40,929 nucleotides of DNA from a virus (lineage: Duplodnaviria; Caudoviricetes), in the IMG/VR virus record IMGVR_UViG_3300037127_000005, positions 1 through 40,929 of that record, one strand, 5' to 3'. The position numbers were made by a program, and so were the translations under genes. Position 1 is the stretch's first letter. The number at the start of each line of letters is the position of its first letter. Below the pieces are notes generated by a model. The model ran no database searches. It saw only the letters and a list, made by a program, of their open reading frames with translations, and was not told the origin of the DNA. This document shows positions 3,817 through 39,309 of the stretch, one piece after another.

Positions 3817-3845
3817 ATATTTAAACCACAGCAATGGAGAGAAAC

Positions 3846-4706
3846 ATGAAAACAGGTTTATTTATTGATATTCCACAAGATGAATACAGAAAAATTGACG
3901 CGCTCGCTAATAGTGACGCGGTAATGATTGAGCGCAACCCAGGCGATTACATCTGGTCACGTAAAGCGCCCATCAATCACTCAAAAGTGCAAACTAAAGA
4001 CTTTGGCACCGCGTTACATTGCGCACTACTCGAGCCAGAGCAATATGACGATTTGGTTTTTGTTAGTAGCGTTAAAGGTCGCAACACAAAATCATTTGAA
4101 CAGGAGGTTATCGACAACCCTGACAATATCGTTTTGACAGCCGATGAAGCGGAGCAAATCAAGGTTATGGTTGGTAGTGTTAACGCTCACCCTACTGCAT
4201 CGCATTTACTATCACAGCAAGGCCAATCTGAATGTAGCGTAATTGCAAACGACTCGGAGCGCAACGTACTTCTAAAGTGTCGTCCGGATAAGAACTTGAT
4301 TGAGTCACTAGGGGTTTGCCTTGACGTTAAAACAACCGGCTCAATCGATGATTGGCGCAGTGACAAAGAGTGGATTAACCCGCTATACAAATTTGATTAC
4401 GGCCACCAAGCAGCGTTTTATTTGCACACACTAAGCCTTCACTATGGCTTTGAAGTCACCCGATTTGTATTTGTTGCAGTGTCATCATCTATCTCACTTG
4501 GTCGTTATCCGGTGGCTGTTTTTGAAGTCACAAAAGACCAGTTAATTGCCTGGGGTTTTTGGCAGCGTATGCTTGCTAATATCGAGCGCTTTAAACAGTG
4601 TCGCGATAACAACGACTGGTTACACAGTGAGTCATTTCACTTTTACAGTGATGACGAGTATACCGATGATGTTGAAGTGGTTTTTGAAGGTGAAGAACAA
4701 TGCTAG
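3846..4706 (+). CDS. RecE/exonuclease VIII-like PD-(D/E)xK exonuclease (DUF3799-like)
   Basis: FGTALHCALLEP, KCRPD, DVKT and YGHQAAFY motifs. The GGAG RBS favours ATG 3846. Confidence 0.88.
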   Translation: MKTGLFIDIPQDEYRKIDALANSDAVMIERNPGDYIWSRKAPINHSKVQTKDFGTALHCALLEPEQYDDLVFVSSVKGRNTKSFEQEVIDNPDNIVLTADEAEQIKVMVGSVNAHPTASHLLSQQGQSECSVIANDSERNVLLKCRPDKNLIESLGVCLDVKTTGSIDDWRSDKEWINPLYKFDYGHQAAFYLHTLSLHYGFEVTRFVFVAVSSSISLGRYPVAVFEVTKDQLIAWGFWQRMLANIERFKQCRDNNDWLHSESFHFYSDDEYTDDVEVVFEGEEQC

Positions 4707-6175: not shown

Positions 6176-6205
6176 TATTGTCATAGTTAAACAAAGGAGA
6201 TAACG

Positions 6206-6439
6206 ATGAAATTTACACCAGAACAAGACCAAGAGCTTGAGCGCCTATGTAAACTAGGCATTGGCAATAAACGTGCAGCTATAATTATCGGCACAAACGA
6301 GTACCAGATTGTAAAACGTATTCGCGAGTTAGGACTAAAAAAAGACAGTACGTTGAATTTCAACCCGCCAAAGCGGTTTAGCTTGAAAGGAATGGCAACT
6401 TGCCAGAATGTGATATTTACAAAGGATATGGCGATATGA
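6206..6439 (+). CDS. Small HTH-like DNA-binding protein
   Basis: FTPEQDQELERL...AAIIIG...QIVKRIRELGL pattern (Myb/GcrA-like HTH); AGGAG RBS. Confidence 0.6.
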   Translation: MKFTPEQDQELERLCKLGIGNKRAAIIIGTNEYQIVKRIRELGLKKDSTLNFNPPKRFSLKGMATCQNVIFTKDMAI

Positions 6440-8126: not shown

Positions 8127-8166
8127 TGCTACAATAAAGCCATACTTTTAAACGTGTGGCTTTTTT
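8127..8166 (+). promoter_or_regulatory. Extended -10 promoter overlapping an intrinsic terminator directly before the portal ATG
   Basis: TGCTACAAT (8127-8135), hairpin AAAGCCATAC/GTGTGGCTTT, T6, then ATG 8167. Confidence 0.65.
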
Positions 8167-9543
8167 ATGCATTACCTACAGAAACTAAACCCGATGGTTG
8201 CTAATTCAATTGCTACCAACTCTAAATATAGAGGGCGGCAACCGTACAGCTCAATATTGCCAAGTGCCCCAGTAAACTTTGGTGATACCAACCGTAATGA
8301 CTCTGCGGCGTATGGCTATCCCGATGTTATTGACTTCCATGTGCTTTATAACGCCTATCGCCGCGGTGGTTTCTTTAACGCGCTGGTTGACATTATCCCA
8401 GAGCGTTGCTTTAGCGATGACCCGTACATTGTTGATGGAGACGAAGATACACCACAAGACACGCAATTTGAACGCGAAGTAAAAGAGCTGGTTGAGAAGT
8501 TTCAACTTTGGCGCGTGTTTGAGGATGCGTTTAAAAAAGCGGACGTCGGGCAGTACGCAACGATTGTCCCGGTAATATCAGAGCCAACACAAAACAGCTT
8601 AGACAGGCCTTTAAAGCGTGGCAAGCGCATCATTGCTATAAATCCTTGGTATCAACCAGAGTGCGAAGCCAACACCACGTACGACTCTGATTACTTTAGC
8701 GAGAACTACAATAAGCCGCTGAGTTACCGCTTGCAGCCGTCAGAACTTAGCGCAAGACAGACAACCAACGGCGAGACGCACACGCTGCACTATAGTCGAG
8801 TCCATGTAATCACTAACGCCGTTGGTGCCACAATCTATGGCGAGTCAGTTTTGGAGCCAGCTTTTAACGCTCTGTTTGACGCTAACAAAGTGCGCGGTGC
8901 ATCCGGTGAAGGTTATCGCAAGAACGCAATGCAGAAGTATGTTCTAAGCGCTAACAACACAGAAGCAGCAAAAGCCATGCAATCCAGAGGTGAGTCTATT
9001 GACCAGTCTATAGATGACTTTAATGATAATTTCAATAACGCACTCAAGCTCTACGGCGTTGACGTAACAAGCCTGCAAACACAACTGCAAGACCCTAAAA
9101 GTGCATGGGAAATATGCGTAGTCGAAGCATGTGCAAGCCGTGGTGTGTCATTTACTGAGTTAGTTGGCTTTATGACTGGTGAGCGAGCCAGTACGCAAAA
9201 CAGCACCTCATTCACCAAGCGGCTCAAAAAACACCAGAAGAAGTACGGCAACGACATTCACAAGTTTTTGTCACGTCTTGTCGAGCTTGGTTTGTTGTCG
9301 CAACCCAGCAATGGTACGTTTAAAGTGTGCTGGCCAGACCTGAGCGAGCCTAGCACAGCTGAAAAGCTAGAAAGCGCTGGCAAGATGACGTCACAAAACG
9401 AGCAAGCATTCAAAGCTGGCCAAGAAGCACCGTGGACCATGGAAGAAATCAGACAAGCGGGCGGTGCGGAAGCCAAAAAACCTGATACCGAATACGACCC
9501 CAAAGAAGATATGGTGTTAGATGAAGAAAATACGCCAGATTAA
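8167..9543 (+). CDS. Portal protein (DUF1073/HI1409-like)
   Basis: 458 aa with YGYP..., AYRRGG..ALVD, HYSRV, YGESVLEPAFN, L-G--TGERAST and WPDL motifs. Directly precedes the gpF-like gene. Confidence 0.85.
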   Translation: MHYLQKLNPMVANSIATNSKYRGRQPYSSILPSAPVNFGDTNRNDSAAYGYPDVIDFHVLYNAYRRGGFFNALVDIIPERCFSDDPYIVDGDEDTPQDTQFEREVKELVEKFQLWRVFEDAFKKADVGQYATIVPVISEPTQNSLDRPLKRGKRIIAINPWYQPECEANTTYDSDYFSENYNKPLSYRLQPSELSARQTTNGETHTLHYSRVHVITNAVGATIYGESVLEPAFNALFDANKVRGASGEGYRKNAMQKYVLSANNTEAAKAMQSRGESIDQSIDDFNDNFNNALKLYGVDVTSLQTQLQDPKSAWEICVVEACASRGVSFTELVGFMTGERASTQNSTSFTKRLKKHQKKYGNDIHKFLSRLVELGLLSQPSNGTFKVCWPDLSEPSTAEKLESAGKMTSQNEQAFKAGQEAPWTMEEIRQAGGAEAKKPDTEYDPKEDMVLDEENTPD

Positions 9544-20875: not shown

Positions 20876-20938
20876 TCCAATAGACCTAAAAATAAACTAA
20901 ACTAGGTGCATTATAACACAGCAATAAAAGGTTTCATT

Positions 20939-21535
20939 GTGCTAACAAGATACGGATTTGGCGCGATTTACATTGGCGATAATAAATACGAGGTTAGGCC
21001 AACGTTTCAGAACATTGGCAAGCTTGGAACCCCTAAAGAAGTTATCGAAACGTTTAAGGCGTTTTTCAATTGCCCGTCAATTAATTGGCAATATCATCGT
21101 GCCGTTGAAATACTGCAAGCGTGTTGTGAGCCCAATTTGCCTGACAAAGTGACAGGGCGATTCCGTGTCGATGAGCGTGGCAAAATGAAAATAGTAAACC
21201 CGCCGGCGCAAGAATTTATGCACGACATTATTGTACTGGCAAGTCATTGTTTGCGGTATGGTGTGGTAGGCGTAACCGATGAAGATTTAAAAAGCGAAGG
21301 TGAGCCAATACAAGAGTTTGACGTTTACCAGTTTATTGGCTTGGCAACTGAGCACCTTGGCCGTAGTCGTGAGCAAGCCGCAGACATGACACTAACAGAG
21401 TTTATGATGGCGTGGGATATTAAGTTTCCAGAGCAGAAAAAAGAACGTGAAGAGTACGCGCGCAAAGTGAAATCACTAAACGCGCTATTGATGTACCAAA
21501 AAGAGCTAGACGAAAAATCTAAGGCTAAGGCGTGA
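20939..21535 (+). CDS. Putative tail assembly chaperone, on the opposite strand to the tail operon
   Basis: RPTFQNIGKLGTPKEVI, EFDVYQFI..A..HLG and A.DMTLTEF motifs. GTG start at 20939 after AAGGT. Lies between the tail tube and TMP genes. Confidence 0.7.
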   Translation: MLTRYGFGAIYIGDNKYEVRPTFQNIGKLGTPKEVIETFKAFFNCPSINWQYHRAVEILQACCEPNLPDKVTGRFRVDERGKMKIVNPPAQEFMHDIIVLASHCLRYGVVGVTDEDLKSEGEPIQEFDVYQFIGLATEHLGRSREQAADMTLTEFMMAWDIKFPEQKKEREEYARKVKSLNALLMYQKELDEKSKAKA

Positions 21536-22034
21536 AAGCTTCTTTTTGCTTAGACTTATTATCTGGTGTGTTGGTAGCTGTGCGAGTAAAAGTAAACTCA
21601 GCAGTACGGTTACCCTCATTCTCTGCGCTACGTCCAAAAGATGTTGGCACCACAAAGTAATAGCGATACTGGTTTAGTAGCGGGTCGGTAATGCGTAGCC
21701 ACATAGTTGGATCGCGACCAGCTTCTACTTCTGCATCATAGTAATCACGCAGCTCTTGCTGTGTTGTTACGTCAACCAAGTCTTTCGCATCTAGCACAGA
21801 TACAGTAATCTCAGTGTCAGTACCAATTACGCGAGTATCAGTGTCAATACCTGAGCGATCCGTATTGCTAGTTACAGTGCGTGGCGTGTCGTTTTCGTTT
21901 CGTGTCTCAAGCTCACCAAGTGGTTTGTATGTAAACGTGCCATTAGTTGTTGGATCATCATCACCACAGCCAGCAGCCCAGCCGACCAGCATGCCACGGC
22001 CAATATCAGTTAGGCGTGTTGAACAATCTGCCAT
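21525..22034 (-). CDS. Major tail (tube) protein
   Basis: 169 aa with IGRG...GCGD, YKPLG and PTMWLRI motifs; GAGG RBS; upstream of TMP. Confidence 0.8.
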   Translation of the reverse strand: MADCSTRLTDIGRGMLVGWAAGCGDDDPTTNGTFTYKPLGELETRNENDTPRTVTSNTDRSGIDTDTRVIGTDTEITVSVLDAKDLVDVTTQQELRDYYDAEVEAGRDPTMWLRITDPLLNQYRYYFVVPTSFGRSAENEGNRTAEFTFTRTATNTPDNKSKQKEAFTP

Positions 22035-22076
22035 AATTTATACCTCATTAAATAATTGATAACGTTATCGCTTGGG

Positions 22077-22085
22077 ATTATAGCA
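22077..22085 (-). promoter_or_regulatory. Extended -10 promoter for the tail tube gene
   Basis: TGCTATAAT on the - strand, just downstream of the terminator at 22099-22125. Confidence 0.55.
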
Positions 22086-22098
22086 TTTATTTGCGGGC

Positions 22099-22192
22099 AA
22101 TAAAAAACCCCACAAATGTGAGGCTTCGAGTTCGAATGCAGTAACATTGTAAGTTATAAATGTTAAAGCAGCTAAAAATAATGTAGTAGACG
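22099..22192 (-). ncRNA. Putative ~90-nt small RNA
   Basis: Promoter TTGACA (22226-22221)-17-TAAAAT (22203-22198) and terminator GCCTCAC-attt-GTGGGGT-T-tract. Internal hairpin TAACATT/AATGTTA. No RBS-led ORF inside. Confidence 0.55.
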
Positions 22193-22238
22193 GATTCATT
22201 TTAGTGCTTTATATTTGGTTTGTCAAATATTACTGGCA

Positions 22239-22267
22239 ATAAAAAACCCACCGTTAAGTGGGTTTTG
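22239..22267 (-). terminator. Intrinsic terminator ending the tRNA-cluster transcript
   Basis: The minus strand reads AAAACCCAC-ttaacg-GTGGGTTTTTT. Confidence 0.75.
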
Positions 22268-22302
22268 GTTTAAAAAGGAGAAAACAATGAATAACAAGTG
22301 CA

Positions 22303-22386
22303 AAAGTGTATCGGTTGTGATGTCAAGGAATCGAACTCTTGAGCCTCCACCGAATGAGGTTAACCATCACCACACCGTTACACTCT
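22303..22386 (-). ncRNA. tRNA-like structured RNA (T-arm plus one hairpin on a long closing stem)
   Basis: Closing stem AGAGTGTA-A-CGGT..GTGATG / CATCAC-A-ACCG-A-TACACTTT encloses CCTC/GAGG and CAAGAG-TTCGATT-CCTTG. Confidence 0.55.
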
Positions 22387-22392
22387 AAAATA

Positions 22393-22468
22393 TGGCGGTT
22401 AATAATGGACTCGAACCATTGACCTAGACGTTAACAGCGTCCCGCTCTACCAACTGAGCTAATTAACC
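22393..22468 (-). tRNA. tRNA-Asn(GTT)
   Basis: GGTTAATTAGCTCAGTTGGTAGAGCGGGACGCTGTTAACGTCTAGGTCAATGGTTCGAGTCCATTATTAACCGCCA: a 76-nt cloverleaf with anticodon GTT and encoded CCA. Confidence 0.95.
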
Positions 22469-22470
22469 TT

Positions 22471-22535
22471 TGGCCCGAAGTGCAGGAATCGAACCTGCTA
22501 AACTGCCTACCCAGTACCGCGGTAAACCTGCCTCG
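22471..22535 (-). ncRNA. Degenerate or D-arm-less tRNA-like element ending in CCA
   Basis: Perfect T-arm GCAGG-TTCGATT-CCTGC, 3' ACTTCGGGCCA, short acceptor-like CGAGG/CTTCG stem and a middle hairpin GTTTACC/GGTAGGC. Confidence 0.5.
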
Positions 22536-22639
22536 CTCTATCTCTCGACCGTGCTTAGCAATGCTATATATCGTCATAGCTACGAGATAAAAGTATCACC
22601 TTACCTTAATTGTTAGCACCTTTCCGCAAGTGTCATTAA

Positions 22640-22668
22640 ACAATAATACTAAACTTAGATTATGTCAA
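22640..22668 (-). promoter_or_regulatory. sigma70 promoter of the tRNA cluster
   Basis: TTGACA (22668-22663)-17 nt-TATTGT (22645-22640). Confidence 0.7.
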
Positions 22669-23105
22669 ACATTAAATTTAACGGTAAGTGGAATTTCAAA
22701 CACGGCGCGACCATCTTCGGCAAATAACGGGTTTGAAACGCCGCGCGTACTAATCGCCATGATGCACTCATCACTTGATTGGTAGTTATCAATTAGCCAC
22801 TTGTAAATGTCAGTTGCTAAACCCTTGGTGATAGCCAAGTCTGCATCGCTAACCTTACTAAACACAGCAACCAGCATGGGGTACTCTGTGTGGCCAAGAT
22901 AGGGGCGACCAAATGAGTCACCGCCATTCTGCCTGACAAACACAGCGCGCTTATCACTGGCAAGCTTGGTTAGGTCAATCATGCCAGCCACTGAATCAGT
23001 CGCACCCTGCGGATTACCAAACACATCAGTGAATGACGTTAGTAAGCCGCTTGTCTTGATGTGCTCGAGTAAGCGCACCTCTTCAAAATTAGCTATTGTT
23101 GTCAT
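22665..23105 (-). CDS. Tail terminator / tail completion protein
   Basis: Last gene of the neck cluster; C-terminal EDGRAVFEIPL motif. Confidence 0.65.
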   Translation of the reverse strand: MTTIANFEEVRLLEHIKTSGLLTSFTDVFGNPQGATDSVAGMIDLTKLASDKRAVFVRQNGGDSFGRPYLGHTEYPMLVAVFSKVSDADLAITKGLATDIYKWLIDNYQSSDECIMAISTRGVSNPLFAEDGRAVFEIPLTVKFNV

Positions 23106-25932: not shown

Positions 25933-26127
25933 ATGATGCTTAAATTTATAGAAAGCCCACAAGTGCAAATATTTTGCAGTTTATTGGTTATGGTATTTGC
26001 TGCGTTTGAGCTATACCTTGGAAGCTCTGATTTTATTTTAATGATGATTTTGATTGCATATTGCATTACAGACATTAATAAGGAGCTTGTAATCATTTCA
26101 AAAGCCCGTGGAGAAAACCATGAATAA
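25933..26127 (+). CDS. Small 2-TM membrane protein
   Basis: GGAG RBS; two hydrophobic segments. Confidence 0.65.
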   Translation: MMLKFIESPQVQIFCSLLVMVFAAFELYLGSSDFILMMILIAYCITDINKELVIISKARGENHE

Positions 26128-26431
26128 GCAACCAAGACAAGTAATACCAGTAGCGCCGCGCACGTATGCAAAACTGGTAAAGGAATACACCGAAAGCGAT
26201 TACGCAAAGCTTGAGCATAAACGCAACGAGGAAAGGCGTAAACTGCAATGCCAAATCAAAGAGTTGAATTTAAAGCTTGATAGTAAAAGTCATTTGCTTG
26301 AGCTTAGCAAGCGTATGGGCGAGGCATTGGAAGAAAAGGCTAAACGCAATAAGAAAGTATCTTCAGCCACCCTTGCTTTTAGCGTGTGCATCGCTTTTGG
26401 CGTTGGCTTATTAGTCGGGTTGGGGTTTTGA
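26120..26431 (+). CDS. Coiled-coil protein with C-terminal TM anchor
   Basis: GGAG RBS before ATG 26120 (MNKQPRQ); C-terminal ATLAFSVCIAFGVGLLVGLGF. Confidence 0.75.
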   Translation: MNKQPRQVIPVAPRTYAKLVKEYTESDYAKLEHKRNEERRKLQCQIKELNLKLDSKSHLLELSKRMGEALEEKAKRNKKVSSATLAFSVCIAFGVGLLVGLGF

Positions 26432-29508: not shown

Positions 29509-30909
29509 TTACTCCTCAAGACCAGGTTTGCGTGAACGATATTCACCGTCATCTGAATTAGTAGACGTTTGACGCCCTTCGTGTTTTGCGTTGTAGCCTT
29601 CGGCCACATACTCTGCACCGTTAGCTTCAAGCACGTCTTTTAGTGCGTTGGCACCCATGGTCTTGGCAACTTCTTTGTTAATGCCAATTTTGAGACCAAC
29701 AACTTGGTCAACCAATTGATCAAGCTCTTTTTCAGCGTTGGCGGTTAGTTGGTCGGCAAGCGGTTTAATCGCCGCGTTAACAATCGACTCAACATCTTCT
29801 TTGGTGAAACCCCCACTAGCATTTGCGGCAAGCTTAGATTTCATTAGAGTTTTAAGCTCATCGTCTGTAACTTGGCTATTAGTAGCTAAGCCTAGCGCTT
29901 CGAGCATTTCACTACGATCCATAATTAGATCCTCATTTTGGTGGTTTACGTCAAATTCCTGACTATTGTAGCCTATCCCCAGTTTATTCGCAAAAGCGGT
30001 AATAGCGCGGTTAATTATTGATTCAACTGGTTGCTCTTGATTGCTGTTAACAACAAAATCATCAAAGTTATAAACCTCGACGTCCTGACCGTTAAAGCGC
30101 ATAACCGTGGCATCACCGCCGGCTGGTTGCTCTGATTCGTGTAGCATGGCTAAATGGTCGTACTGCTGATTCATGGCCACCTTATCGTAATCATCGCCGC
30201 ACTCGTTGTTAGCGTCAAAGGTTAGCCCGGTACTAACGCCGATTGGCTCGCCATTATCTAGGCGGTCGGCAAAGTATTCACCCATGTCAGTGGCGCGCAA
30301 CTTCTTCTCGTTTATTTCAGCGTCAGCATACCAAGTACCATCCTTGTTGTAAGTGCCAGTTACTTTGCCACCGGAATAGTAGTCAATGCCATTCGGCGAA
30401 AACACTGACACGTTACGGCCATCTTCATCGGCTGGGTGCGTTAACGTCATTGGCATGCCGTTTAATGATTGCATGCCTTTCTTGTTTTCATCGGCTGGGT
30501 ATTTAATGCCGTTCATGATTGCGTCATCAACAGTAACCGGTATACCGTTAATCTGGTATTTGCCGTCAGTCTTATTGACCGTGGTCTTGCTTGTGTTTGT
30601 TGCTAATATAATTCGCATGTTGCTAGCCTCGTTTGTACTGGGGTTACCTGGTATACAGTCCCAGTATATCAAACTAAGTGTGTTAGGGTTAAACCCGCGC
30701 TCGTTCAGCTTATCGGCGCGTGAGCAATAACTGGCCTTGGCTTTAGGATTATCTTGACGGGTGCGCATATCAGCGTCACCAAAGTGCACAGACTTACCAT
30801 CTGATTGCCTGACAGCTTTGAAGGTTTTACCTTTGGCTGTTGGTTTTTCTATTTTAACTCGACCAATACCGTATCCTAGCGTGTAAGTTGATCCAATTTT
30901 AAAGCGCAT
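29509..30909 (-). CDS. Prohead protease/scaffold (DUF2213-like) with an extra N-terminal basic domain
   Basis: MNGIKYP, TLTHP, IGVSTGL and YDHLAML..EQPAG motifs; C-terminal helical scaffold region. Confidence 0.85.
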   Translation of the reverse strand: MRFKIGSTYTLGYGIGRVKIEKPTAKGKTFKAVRQSDGKSVHFGDADMRTRQDNPKAKASYCSRADKLNERGFNPNTLSLIYWDCIPGNPSTNEASNMRIILATNTSKTTVNKTDGKYQINGIPVTVDDAIMNGIKYPADENKKGMQSLNGMPMTLTHPADEDGRNVSVFSPNGIDYYSGGKVTGTYNKDGTWYADAEINEKKLRATDMGEYFADRLDNGEPIGVSTGLTFDANNECGDDYDKVAMNQQYDHLAMLHESEQPAGGDATVMRFNGQDVEVYNFDDFVVNSNQEQPVESIINRAITAFANKLGIGYNSQEFDVNHQNEDLIMDRSEMLEALGLATNSQVTDDELKTLMKSKLAANASGGFTKEDVESIVNAAIKPLADQLTANAEKELDQLVDQVVGLKIGINKEVAKTMGANALKDVLEANGAEYVAEGYNAKHEGRQTSTNSDDGEYRSRKPGLEE

Positions 30910-30946
30910 AAAAAAGCCCTATGGTTTAGATAGGGCTATTGTAGCA
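30910..30946 (-). promoter_or_regulatory. Extended -10 promoter overlapping an intrinsic terminator directly before the ATG
   Basis: TGCTACAAT-A-GCCCTAT-ctaaacc-ATAGGGC-TTTTTT-ATG. Confidence 0.65.
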
Positions 30947-37107: not shown

Positions 37108-37299
37108 CTACAAACTCTGCGCTCCAAGAAGCCCCAAAAGAAACAATACAACATACACCAGAAGCCACCAGCGCGATTCTGAGCGCTTTAAATCAGAATA
37201 GTACGGACTAATGCGTAAAGCTCTTATTTTCGCTGCTGTGTCGTTCTCTGCCTTAAATTTAACGATTTTACCGCGCACTTTGATTGTGTAGTTATTCAT
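37108..37299 (-). CDS. Small protein with C-terminal TM helix
   Basis: WWLLVYVVLFLLGLLG segment; GGAG RBS. Confidence 0.65.
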   Translation of the reverse strand: MNNYTIKVRGKIVKFKAENDTAAKIRALRISPYYSDLKRSESRWWLLVYVVLFLLGLLGAQSL

Positions 37300-37612
37300 T
37301 GTTCATCTCCAAGTAAACTATCATTGCGGCGCGTAGTTGGCCTCGCATGGTTTCATGTGTCTTAACATCCCATTTTATTGCGGCAAAATTACCATCTTGA
37401 TCAAATACTGGTTTTGTTAATTCTTTCCATATCTCCTGTATTACAGGCCAAGCGTCTGATGGGTTGTTGCATGGTTCATAATTAAAATCATCACCATCAG
37501 AAACTTGAACTCTTACAGAACCAAACTGCTCGTACACGACTAAATCACAATACTTCAACTCAGCAACCGCCCTATTAATCTCAAAATCACTTTTATCTTG
37601 CCACTTACTCAT
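37292..37612 (-). CDS. NinX-like (DUF2591) protein
   Basis: SDFEINRAVA, PCNNPSDAWPVI and LRAAMIVYLEM motifs; exact start uncertain. Confidence 0.75.
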   Translation of the reverse strand: MSKWQDKSDFEINRAVAELKYCDLVVYEQFGSVRVQVSDGDDFNYEPCNNPSDAWPVIQEIWKELTKPVFDQDGNFAAIKWDVKTHETMRGQLRAAMIVYLEMNNE

Positions 37613-37708: not shown

Positions 37709-38155
37709 TCAAAACTCATACCTCGCATGTAATGTGAAAAACCCTGCATAGTGTGCGCCGAACACTAAACCAAAATTATCGTTAACGTCGTAGTCAACTT
37801 CCAATGCTGCAACCGGCGTTACATGTTCAATCACCATCTTGTCAGTCGCACGGTCTTTGTAACCAAGTGCCACGCCATAGGAAAAATTAACATCAAGTCG
37901 CTCATACTGGTAAAGTGGCTTTTGCTTTGTGATAACACCTATCCAATCACCAAAGCTGTTCTCGATAGCGACAAAACGCCAGTCTTTAAACTCAACACCA
38001 ATACCCTGGTTACTTTCATTCCATTCTGTTTTAAGGCCCGTGGCTTTACTTGTGTAGCTGCGTGACTCCCAATGATATGAGCCGACAGGAACAACCAAGC
38101 TTGCTGCTTGTGCCGCACCGCTAACCAGTGCCATTGATAAGATTAGTGATTTCAT
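37709..38155 (-). CDS. Outer-membrane beta-barrel protein (PagP-like) with signal peptide
   Basis: Sec signal MKSLILSMALVSGAAQA; SYHW, WNESNQGIGVEF and ENSF motifs; amphipathic strands; C-terminal beta-signal ARYEF. Confidence 0.7.
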   Translation of the reverse strand: MKSLILSMALVSGAAQAASLVVPVGSYHWESRSYTSKATGLKTEWNESNQGIGVEFKDWRFVAIENSFGDWIGVITKQKPLYQYERLDVNFSYGVALGYKDRATDKMVIEHVTPVAALEVDYDVNDNFGLVFGAHYAGFFTLHARYEF

Positions 38156-38457: not shown

Positions 38458-38756
38458 TAGCGCCACTCCAAAACAATAACCGCCACGCAATTACCGCTCA
38501 CGTCACGAAATTGCAATTTGCTTTTTGCACCAGCTGGTGAAGGCCAAGTGTTGGAAATTTCACAATCGAAAAACATAACTTGCAAACCACCTATCTTTAA
38601 AGTGCTTTGATTGTTAAACCAAGTAACTCGATATTCAGCTCCAAGGGCATTAAAAGCAAACTCCCTGCTAAATCCATGTTCGTCTATATTGATATTTTCG
38701 CCACCTAGGCATTTAACAAAAATTGCTTCTGCTTTTTCAAATTCAAACTTATTCAT
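38457..38756 (-). CDS. Hypothetical protein, first gene of the leftward early operon
   Basis: GGAG RBS before MNKFEF; promoter AAAAACAA-TAC-TTGCAT-17-TATATT (38825-38786). Confidence 0.75.
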   Translation of the reverse strand: MNKFEFEKAEAIFVKCLGGENINIDEHGFSREFAFNALGAEYRVTWFNNQSTLKIGGLQVMFFDCEISNTWPSPAGAKSKLQFRDVSGNCVAVIVLEWR

Positions 38757-38849
38757 GTTTATCTCCATCTCGTTTTGTTGAGTTAAATATAAAGCCAACT
38801 AAACACAAATGCAAGTATTGTTTTTAGTTTTATTGGTTAAATTTTGTTG

Positions 38850-39190
38850 TGGGTATGAATATACCCGCTGTGGGTATGATATGGGTATAGGTTTGGGTAT
38901 GGAAATGGGTATGTATATATATGGTATAAGTGTATGATATTATTATTATTATTATTATTATTTACTATGTTTGGGTATGAATATAAGTGTTTTTGTATTT
39001 TTATTTATCTACCAGTATTTGTATGCTTTCTATTTTTACTTTTCATATGTGTATATAGTGAAAAAACCGCCTTTTCATACCCATTTTTGCAAAACTTACT
39101 GCAAATCAAATGCTTGAGTCGTTTTTTCATACCCATTTGCATACCCAAAGCTACCCTACGGCATACCCAAACACCCACAAATATACCCAC
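38850..39190. repeat. Putative replication origin: inverted arrays of TGGGTAT iterons around an AT-rich core
   Basis: TGGGTAT at 38850, 38871, 38882, 38894, 38906 and 38972; ATACCCA at 39077, 39129, 39141, 39163 and 39183; (TTA)n tract at about 38940-38962. Confidence 0.7.
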
Positions 39191-39309
39191 AAACACCAAC
39201 TAACAATCGCTTTTATCAATCAAAAGTTACCAATCAATCTATAAATCAAATTTTTATTATTTCCATTTATGTGACACCATGTGTTACACGGTATCAGGAG
39301 ATTTTTGCT

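Follow-up and report, generated by a model that had tools for sequence, protein, structure and literature searches.

The sequence analysed in this study (hereafter the window) is the complete record of a marine bacterial virus, 40,929 bases long with direct terminal repeats, and the PHROG matches of its 68 proteins (best five per protein) describe a siphovirus-type gene set. Families of integrases, repressors and antirepressors are absent from the PHROG matches listed for these 68 proteins, many of which have no family, and the phage looks lytic. The major tail protein matches the Pseudoalteromonas phages H40/1, C7, H103, XCL1123 and TW1, thus the host genus is probably Pseudoalteromonas, and H40/1 is described as lytic in the accessible part of its source (PMC5288847). 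Genes running against the direction of the structural operon are inserted at 20906-21535 (+) and 25933-26431 (+), the region 38800-39250 with few genes, short repeats and a strong strand bias is likely the replication origin, and a PagP-like outer-membrane beta-barrel match (phrog_3600; 37709-38155, -), whose start has GGAGA, lies among small non-structural genes. Terminator-like hairpins stand directly before the portal gene and a 466-aa head gene (8137-8167 and 30909-30937), their T-run abutting the first ATG, and the portal layout is kept in relatives; the true starts of these two genes may lie downstream, or the hairpins may attenuate.

The locus under study is an RNA cassette on the - strand, faced by one short open reading frame on the + strand:

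22640..22668, - strand: putative sigma-70-type promoter, TTGACA-17-TATTGT (10/12 match)
22530..22608, - strand: module A, a leader RNA with an extended Shine-Dalgarno-like start and a covarying hairpin (alignments)
22471..22548, - strand: degenerate tRNA-like stretch with T-arm and CCA end, overlapping the 3' end of module A (ARAGORN relaxed score only)
22393..22468, - strand: tRNA-Asn(GTT), CCA encoded (71.2 bits)
22304..22385, - strand: module B, with a 17-bp closing stem, one internal mismatch and one bulged A (21 copies; fold z -2.5)
22268..22303, - strand: unpaired pyrimidine-rich linker with an anti-RBS and anti-AUG seed (core 22277-22296; fold prediction and homologues)
22241..22266, - strand: intrinsic terminator hairpin and U-tail (homologous hairpin in H40/1, G007, H103, XCL1123, G002 and G004)
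22287..22388, + strand: 33-aa ORF opposite module B, not regarded as a conserved gene

A preliminary description of this DNA had placed the linker at the end of a tRNA-cluster transcript. One canonical tRNA, tRNA-Asn, was recovered, but the rest of that cluster proved to be the degenerate tRNA-like stretch, which scores 16.3 bits with the tRNA-Sec model against a cut-off of 47, and two modules that are not tRNAs. The segment that it had singled out does lie on the - strand between a long-stemmed, T-loop-bearing module (22304-22385) and the terminator hairpin (22241-22266), and is predicted to be unpaired: the last 149 nt of the cassette fold at z -2.6, with the 36-nt linker open. The terminator is possibly bidirectional, given an A-tract on its other side. 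Upstream of module A, TTGAC-N18-TATTGT was also identified in H40/1, H103, XCL1123, G002, G004 and G007, so that the promoter pattern is common to seven full genomes, with variants in C7, G001 and G003, and it was not found in eight entries (PHS21, SL25, HS5, TW1, G005, G008, PS_L5 and L024). A second short unit follows the cassette (22095-22226, -), in which an 11/12 promoter match (22226-22198) and a terminator enclose some 70 AU-rich nt; of these parts the terminator alone has look-alikes in relatives.

Conservation of modules A and B

Modules A and B recur in the cultured phages C7, TW1, PHS21, SL25, PS_L5, HS5/HS1, H40/1, H103, XCL1123 and records G001-G007. The module A hairpin covaries, with double-sided change at five of 11 predicted pairs among 13 sequences, and in the stem of module B 15 of the 17 positions are paired in 20-21 of 21 copies, with compensatory changes at several positions and the bulged A kept in 20 copies. 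G-U pairs in this stem fit an RNA of the cassette (-) strand. The cargo of module B is lineage-specific: it consists of a small hairpin and a T-loop arm in the window, ranges from 23 to 173 nt, and is unrelated to the window cargo in all 20 other copies. Modules A and B are an uncatalogued structured RNA family. At the gathering score, Rfam returned tRNA only over the cassette and nothing for modules A, B or the linker; a low-stringency search gave 19 matches at E<=5 on 21900-22800, and the 18 sub-threshold matches (RybB, VrrA, leaders, YrlA, tRNA-Sec and others) were rejected, all lying below their own cut-offs. No description of the cassette was found in the literature searched, a coverage mostly outside subscription papers, and four motifs are absent from six supplement files of Fremin et al. 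2023 (PMC10690425), a set that leaves out files 1, 2 and 4.

Wider scans added little. The module A pattern gave 0 loci in genome contigs, and protein 38756 gave 48 candidates there, none confirmed. Among pattern scans of viral contigs, one gave two chance matches only, in another six of nine loci were due to chance and were dropped, the window's own linker pattern gave 0 loci, and BLAST of the 3' 163 nt against phages returned short matches only, mostly to the terminator (best 40 of 432 matches).

Several observations concern the modules in their own right. The first bases of module A are complementary, over an extended stretch, to the 16S rRNA 3' end, and it has no conserved ORF (window 22530-22608, -; L034:1300-1420; L088:900-990); it stands before tRNAs in Pq0 without module B, and a stretch that looks similar by eye precedes the endolysin gene of Vibrio phages, the Vibrio stretch being matched by 243 records. 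Module A by itself is an uncatalogued RNA motif. Cargos of module B have been swapped between lineages, the same cargo occurring in different stems (PHS21, G002, H103), near-tRNA cargos occur in C7, G004 and G005, and about 50 nt of one G002 cargo recur, with 98-100% identity, behind the tRNA cluster of Vibrio phages. A second, nearly invariant linker type that starts with GTACCAATCAA and has no anti-SD was found in the mutually distant phages PHS21, SL25, PS_L5, H40/1, G002, G004, G005, G007 and L024, and its constancy hints at a conserved partner, perhaps in the host. In TW1, G008 and L074, module A or B is followed by a common additional element, which begins with CTCGACTATATTTT and ends with AGTCCGAGGATT (L064:1800-1860; L072; L074) and is possibly a third RNA module. 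The loci of the first two kinds are as follows:

window 22304-22385 (- strand), L013:2477-2569, L034:1200-1252, L035:1200-1250: cargo swaps in module B
L003:2697-2715, L013:2424-2445, L040:682-703: second linker type, start GTACCAATCAA

The linker and the start regions of phage genes

The + strand at 22277-22294 reads GGAGAAAACAATGAATAA and, as previously noted, matches the start region of gene 26120 (26110-26127, +) at 17 of 18 positions and that of gene 38756 (38749-38766, - strand) at 15 of 18. Since none of 300 shuffles of the 36-nt linker reached 17/18 anywhere in the genome, the match is not that of a random sequence; among genomic 36-mers, five of 341 reached this value. The caveat of a shared RBS/ATG consensus, already raised in the preliminary description, was well founded, the agreement between the linker and 26120 being equalled among real starts: among the 2211 pairs of 67 true starts, one pair stands at 17/18 (32044 vs 37093) and one at 16/18 (26120 vs 38756). 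Because real starts also reach 17/18, the match is a sign of a family of look-alike starts, and the linker site belongs to the GGAGA-N-ATGAA start family of this phage. GGAGA lies before 13 of 44 non-structural starts of the window and before none of 20 structural starts, classes that were assigned from PHROG matches and position, with 'early' deduced.

When 64 window starts were ranked by predicted duplex energy with the linker, the medians were -15.1 kcal/mol for non-structural and -10.6 kcal/mol for structural starts (p=5e-4), and the mean of the top eight was -21.4 kcal/mol as against -17.3 +/- 1.3 kcal/mol for shuffles that keep CTCC, 0 of 150 reaching it. The predicted targets are:

37291..37310, - strand: start of gene 37299 (63 aa, phrog_20926), best of 64, -26.2 kcal/mol
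26110..26127, + strand: start of gene 26120 (103-aa orphan), 17/18, -22.3 kcal/mol
6196..6213, + strand: start of gene 6206 (77 aa), -21.2 kcal/mol
3836..3853, + strand: start of gene 3846 (exonuclease VIII-like, phrog_412), -20.8 kcal/mol
38749..38766, - strand: start of gene 38756 (99 aa, phrog_21861), 15/18, ninth, -18.3 kcal/mol

The two targets named earlier, 26120 and 38756, are therefore both among the predicted partners, but as members of a class of GGAGA-type starts in which 37299 pairs best, its duplex comprising 13 contiguous Watson-Crick pairs over the AUG in addition to the SD. The second of the 64 is the start of gene 25384 (-22.6 kcal/mol), which is wobble-rich, and the eighth is the major capsid start 29041 (-18.4 kcal/mol). 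In the 26120 protein, a coiled-coil-like body is combined with a hydrophobic segment at the C-terminus; for its co-variation, three candidates yielded a match to itself only and 15 relatives yielded none. A single dedicated target was also considered and rejected, the own best start beating all 40 shuffles in just two of 17 linkers, namely that of the window and that of SL25, which has no anti-SD, and the other anti-SD linkers failing.

Nine genomes from four lineages have, as the final linker ahead of a terminator, the complement of an SD: GGAGAAAA in the window, GGAGGGTC in H40/1 and G007, AGAGGGTT in H103, XCL1123, G002 and G004, and GGAGATTT in G001 and G003. A start-codon complement (CAU or UAU; ATG or ATA on the opposite strand) follows it in eight of the nine, G003 having neither, and in the H103-type linker two distinct start motifs, AGAGGGTT and GGAATAGAGA, have their complements joined. 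Six related genomes (C7, TW1, PHS21, SL25, HS5 and G005) have module B without an anti-SD linker. In some linker genomes an internal terminator-like hairpin lies upstream of the linker, so that its transcription there needs read-through. A 230-nt contig of sequencing run X2 (single contig, depth 2.7) joins module A straight to the linker, without tRNA and module B; within the window parts covered by X2 contigs, it shows five changes in 22271-22276, and for 22277-22306 none is listed.

The flavour of the linker was compared with the starts of 15 genomes (54-87 predicted starts per genome). AGAGGGT starts number 5, 7, 6 and 5 in the four genomes with a linker complementary to them, 1-2 in H40/1 and G007 and 0 in the remaining nine; GGAGATT starts number six each in G001 and G003 and 0-3 in the other 13 genomes; and GGAGA[AT]A starts number seven in the window and 0-2 in the other eight linker genomes, with eight in C7 despite its lack of an anti-SD linker. 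The pairing of each lineage with its own starts is the best of 24 permutations of the four groups (about p=0.04, with groups set post hoc). In reciprocal swaps between orthologue starts, the own linker was favoured in 39 of 59 non-structural families (mean -1.64 kcal/mol, p=0.0016) and in nine of 21 structural families (p=0.66). The groups, the limits of the linkers and the structural class had been chosen with the data in view, the families are not independent and the lineages are just four. With window pairs alone, it was favoured in 16 of 29 non-structural (p=0.036) and 11 of 20 structural cases. The largest effect was obtained for the family of 38756 and its H40/1 orthologue (-12.3 kcal/mol), the start of the latter preferring the H40/1 linker, and 3846 gives -11.5 kcal/mol against its G001 and XCL1123 orthologues.

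Motif counts and swaps speak for the co-variation in relatives that the preliminary description had suggested checking, but it is weak for the linkers of the window and H40/1, and wobble-compatible differences are not in excess (71 vs 85, p=0.30). Among the 15 genomes, the window linker ranks its own genome third by ungapped score and first by duplex energy, with a margin of just 0.2 kcal/mol, and starts with at least nine perfect pairs are as numerous in each of four foreign genomes as in its own, five in every case. For the H40/1 linker, no start of its genome offers nine perfect pairs, and that genome ranks fifth of 15. These comparisons suggest that linker flavour tracks the RBS flavour of its own genome, clearly in two lineages and weakly in the window and H40/1.

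A putative multi-target antisense RNA and its alternatives

By prediction and conservation, the cassette has the layout of an antisense sRNA, with its own promoter, a predicted unpaired seed and an intrinsic terminator. Thus we propose, with somewhat more confidence than doubt, that the linker is the seed of a multi-target trans-acting antisense RNA that would damp a class of non-structural genes together. A trans-acting RNA released by tRNA processing had been put forward before; what supports it is the anti-SD and anti-start-codon tail, which occurs in nine genomes and appears to co-vary with their own non-structural starts, whereas a specificity for 26120 was not borne out. Host polymerase would produce an RNA of about 400 nt from the promoter (22668-22640) to the terminator, and maturation of tRNA-Asn would free a 3' piece of about 150 nt, or of about 70 nt if a double-strand nuclease such as RNase III cut the module B stem. 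The tail of this piece would pair over the SD and AUG of GGAGA-type starts (37299, 26120, 6206, 3846, 38756 and others) and block 30S loading. As the stable RNA accumulated, the output of the targeted genes would fall, and structural genes, which use other SD types, would escape, an escape that is not absolute because the major capsid start ranks eighth. The RNA could also blunt a superinfecting relative. The cassette promoter looks host-type, which suggests that the RNA would accumulate from early infection on and not be switched on late.

The main rival to an antisense RNA is that the linker is the relic start of an opposite-strand gene, or a copy of the start motif spread by recombination, without RNA function. 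Much of the above is compatible with it: true starts form families of look-alikes, opposite-strand genes are inserted around the locus in C7, H103, XCL1123 and G001, the G001 linker resembles the start of the neighbouring gene 13349, the wobble test was null, and flavour would co-vary in the same way if the linker descended from a gene start. Hairpin, RBS and gene is also a natural layout (e.g. 32986/32998), and six further hairpins among the 182 terminator-like ones of the 15 genomes precede real genes. However, a geneless opposite-strand RBS with AT[GA] occurs at 12 of these 182 hairpins, seven of them being terminators of the cassette (the scan did not pick up the ones of XCL1123 and G003), leaving just five at 175 other hairpins. 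Decay would be expected of a relic, but the complements of SD and start codon have persisted in four lineages as spacer and flanks diverged, the core is kept in the X2 contig with the adjoining bases changed, and the H103-type linker is a composite of two start-motif complements. We therefore regard this explanation as unlikely, though it deserves to be taken seriously; if it were right, interest would be reduced to the cassette alone.

Alternatively, the antisense seed might be aimed mainly at mRNAs of the host or of competing phages, as a generic anti-GGAG silencer, with the matches to own genes secondary. PreS is a precedent of a phage sRNA acting on host mRNAs, and the window linker pairs about equally well with starts of several other phages, but the shifts of flavour follow phage genomes that share one host genus and the orthologue swaps favour own starts, which makes such a main role improbable. 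We give still less credence to pairing in cis, in which the anti-SD would close or switch the cassette RNA by binding the SD-like 5' end of module A. The extended SD-like opening is present in most copies of module A, and the X2 contig puts module A beside the linker; nevertheless, H103 and XCL1123 have an anti-SD linker with a module A lacking the SD-like start, PHS21, HS5 and Pq0 have module A without such a linker, and the anti-AUG and the tracking of flavour would be left unexplained.

That the site is a working RBS of the 33-aa ORF, the alternative entertained in the preliminary description, is very doubtful. The ORF exists, with a good SD (AAGGAG, 6-nt spacer), an ATG and a weak + strand promoter match at 22187-22215, but no PHROG and no tblastn match in 15 relatives was obtained for it, the X2 join deletes most of the frame, and the terminator hairpin lies 10 nt upstream on the + strand. 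The equivalent frame has 33 aa in the window and 7, 6, 2 or 1 aa or no start in eight relatives, thus no conserved peptide lies opposite the linker. A chance resemblance of a pyrimidine-rich spacer before a terminator, for which the five genomic 36-mers at 17/18 would speak, is scarcely tenable against the two sets of shuffles and is largely refuted by the recurrence in four lineages.

Comparison with known systems

Small RNAs of the Hfq type have an unpaired seed, an intrinsic terminator and a U-tail, and pair over the SD and AUG of several mRNAs; unlike them, the window RNA would be encoded by a phage and joined, behind a tRNA, to a structured module that can be exchanged. Phage T4 carries RNAC and RNAD in its tRNA cluster. 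They are small non-tRNA RNAs of a lytic phage with no known role and, unlike the RNA proposed here, no anti-RBS role is described for them in the accessible part of the source (PMC9697503). Bacterial Y RNAs (YrlA), also present in phages, have a terminal stem around a tRNA-like domain, according to the text available (PMC4201824), and module B likewise has a stem enclosing a tRNA-like domain. In YrlA the T arm precedes the D arm, whereas the cargos of C7 and G005 fold in the ordinary D-to-T order. A Y RNA identity was rejected: RF02553 gave 22.8 bits against 69, on 22444-22500 and not on module B, and this weak match spans two tandem tRNA-like units, a false positive of the kind warned of in the part of PMC4201824 available. 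No Ro60/TROVE gene is among the PHROG matches listed, and the flanking genes are tail and connector genes.

The P4 CI RNA is a phage RNA derived from a longer precursor that pairs in trans. The C4 antisense RNA of P1/P7 is of the same kind, being cut from a longer precursor and blocking ribosome-binding sites in trans, as the accessible parts of the sources state (PMC5320573, PMC12197685). The proposed block of the RBS by pairing in trans is alike, but the likeness to C4 and CI drawn in the preliminary description did not hold for family or layout, and the phage looks lytic. The C4 covariance model gave no match at the gathering score, nor is it among the 19 low-stringency Rfam matches on 21900-22800. 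Unlike C4, whose a'/b' elements lie, as far as the available text describes, in loops of a P1-P2-P3 fold, a three-stem cloverleaf, the window seed lies in a 3' tail before the terminator, and its predicted targets are many gene starts rather than one antirepressor operon. C4 also serves the immunity of temperate phages, in contrast to the window, without integrase or repressor among the PHROG matches listed, and to its lytic relative H40/1.

The closest published layout is found in cluster K mycobacteriophages, whose non-structural genes have a common motif across the RBS, the start-associated sequence (SAS), of which four K1 genomes have a single copy in opposite orientation; in the part of the paper available, its authors leave open whether the partner is a phage RNA or a protein (PMC3203893). 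The window similarly has a shared RBS motif confined to non-structural starts and one reversed, geneless copy at a terminator. As far as the accessible SAS text goes, the differences are that SAS is a 13-bp near-exact repeat, whereas the window motif is looser (7-9 nt) and lineage-dependent, and that the reversed copy in the window lies in a promoter-to-terminator RNA cassette, whereas no RNA gene is described for the SAS copy. The 13-bp SAS consensus and extended inverted repeats were not apparent in the listed start regions of the window.

In function, the closest system is that of the T4 RegB endoribonuclease and RegA repressor, which exert class-wide control via the GGAG Shine-Dalgarno or start region and spare late transcripts, according to the available part of the source (PMC3014915). 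Both are post-transcriptional controls of a class of phage mRNAs, but the effector in the window is a predicted RNA and those of T4 are proteins, and no RegA or RegB family is among the PHROG matches listed for the 68 window proteins (best five each). Class-wide shut-down of early phage mRNAs is known from proteins, and phage antisense RNAs are known mostly as single-target immunity switches of temperate phages, thus an RNA of a lytic phage that reads a lineage-specific RBS motif would, if true, be a new way to coordinate a class of genes. The cultured relatives H40/1, H103 and XCL1123, with their different seed flavours, make the proposal directly testable. We tentatively extend it, as a possibility that we hold less firmly than the antisense seed itself, to an RNA counterpart of RegB, in which a small-RNA seed co-evolving with a private RBS code would silence the non-structural class, including that of superinfecting kin, and let structural genes escape, the RNA being the 3' module of a cassette whose conserved processing stem would release swappable cargos. 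This would offer a concrete model for what binds start-associated sequences and would suggest a role for the reversed SAS copies in mycobacteriophages.
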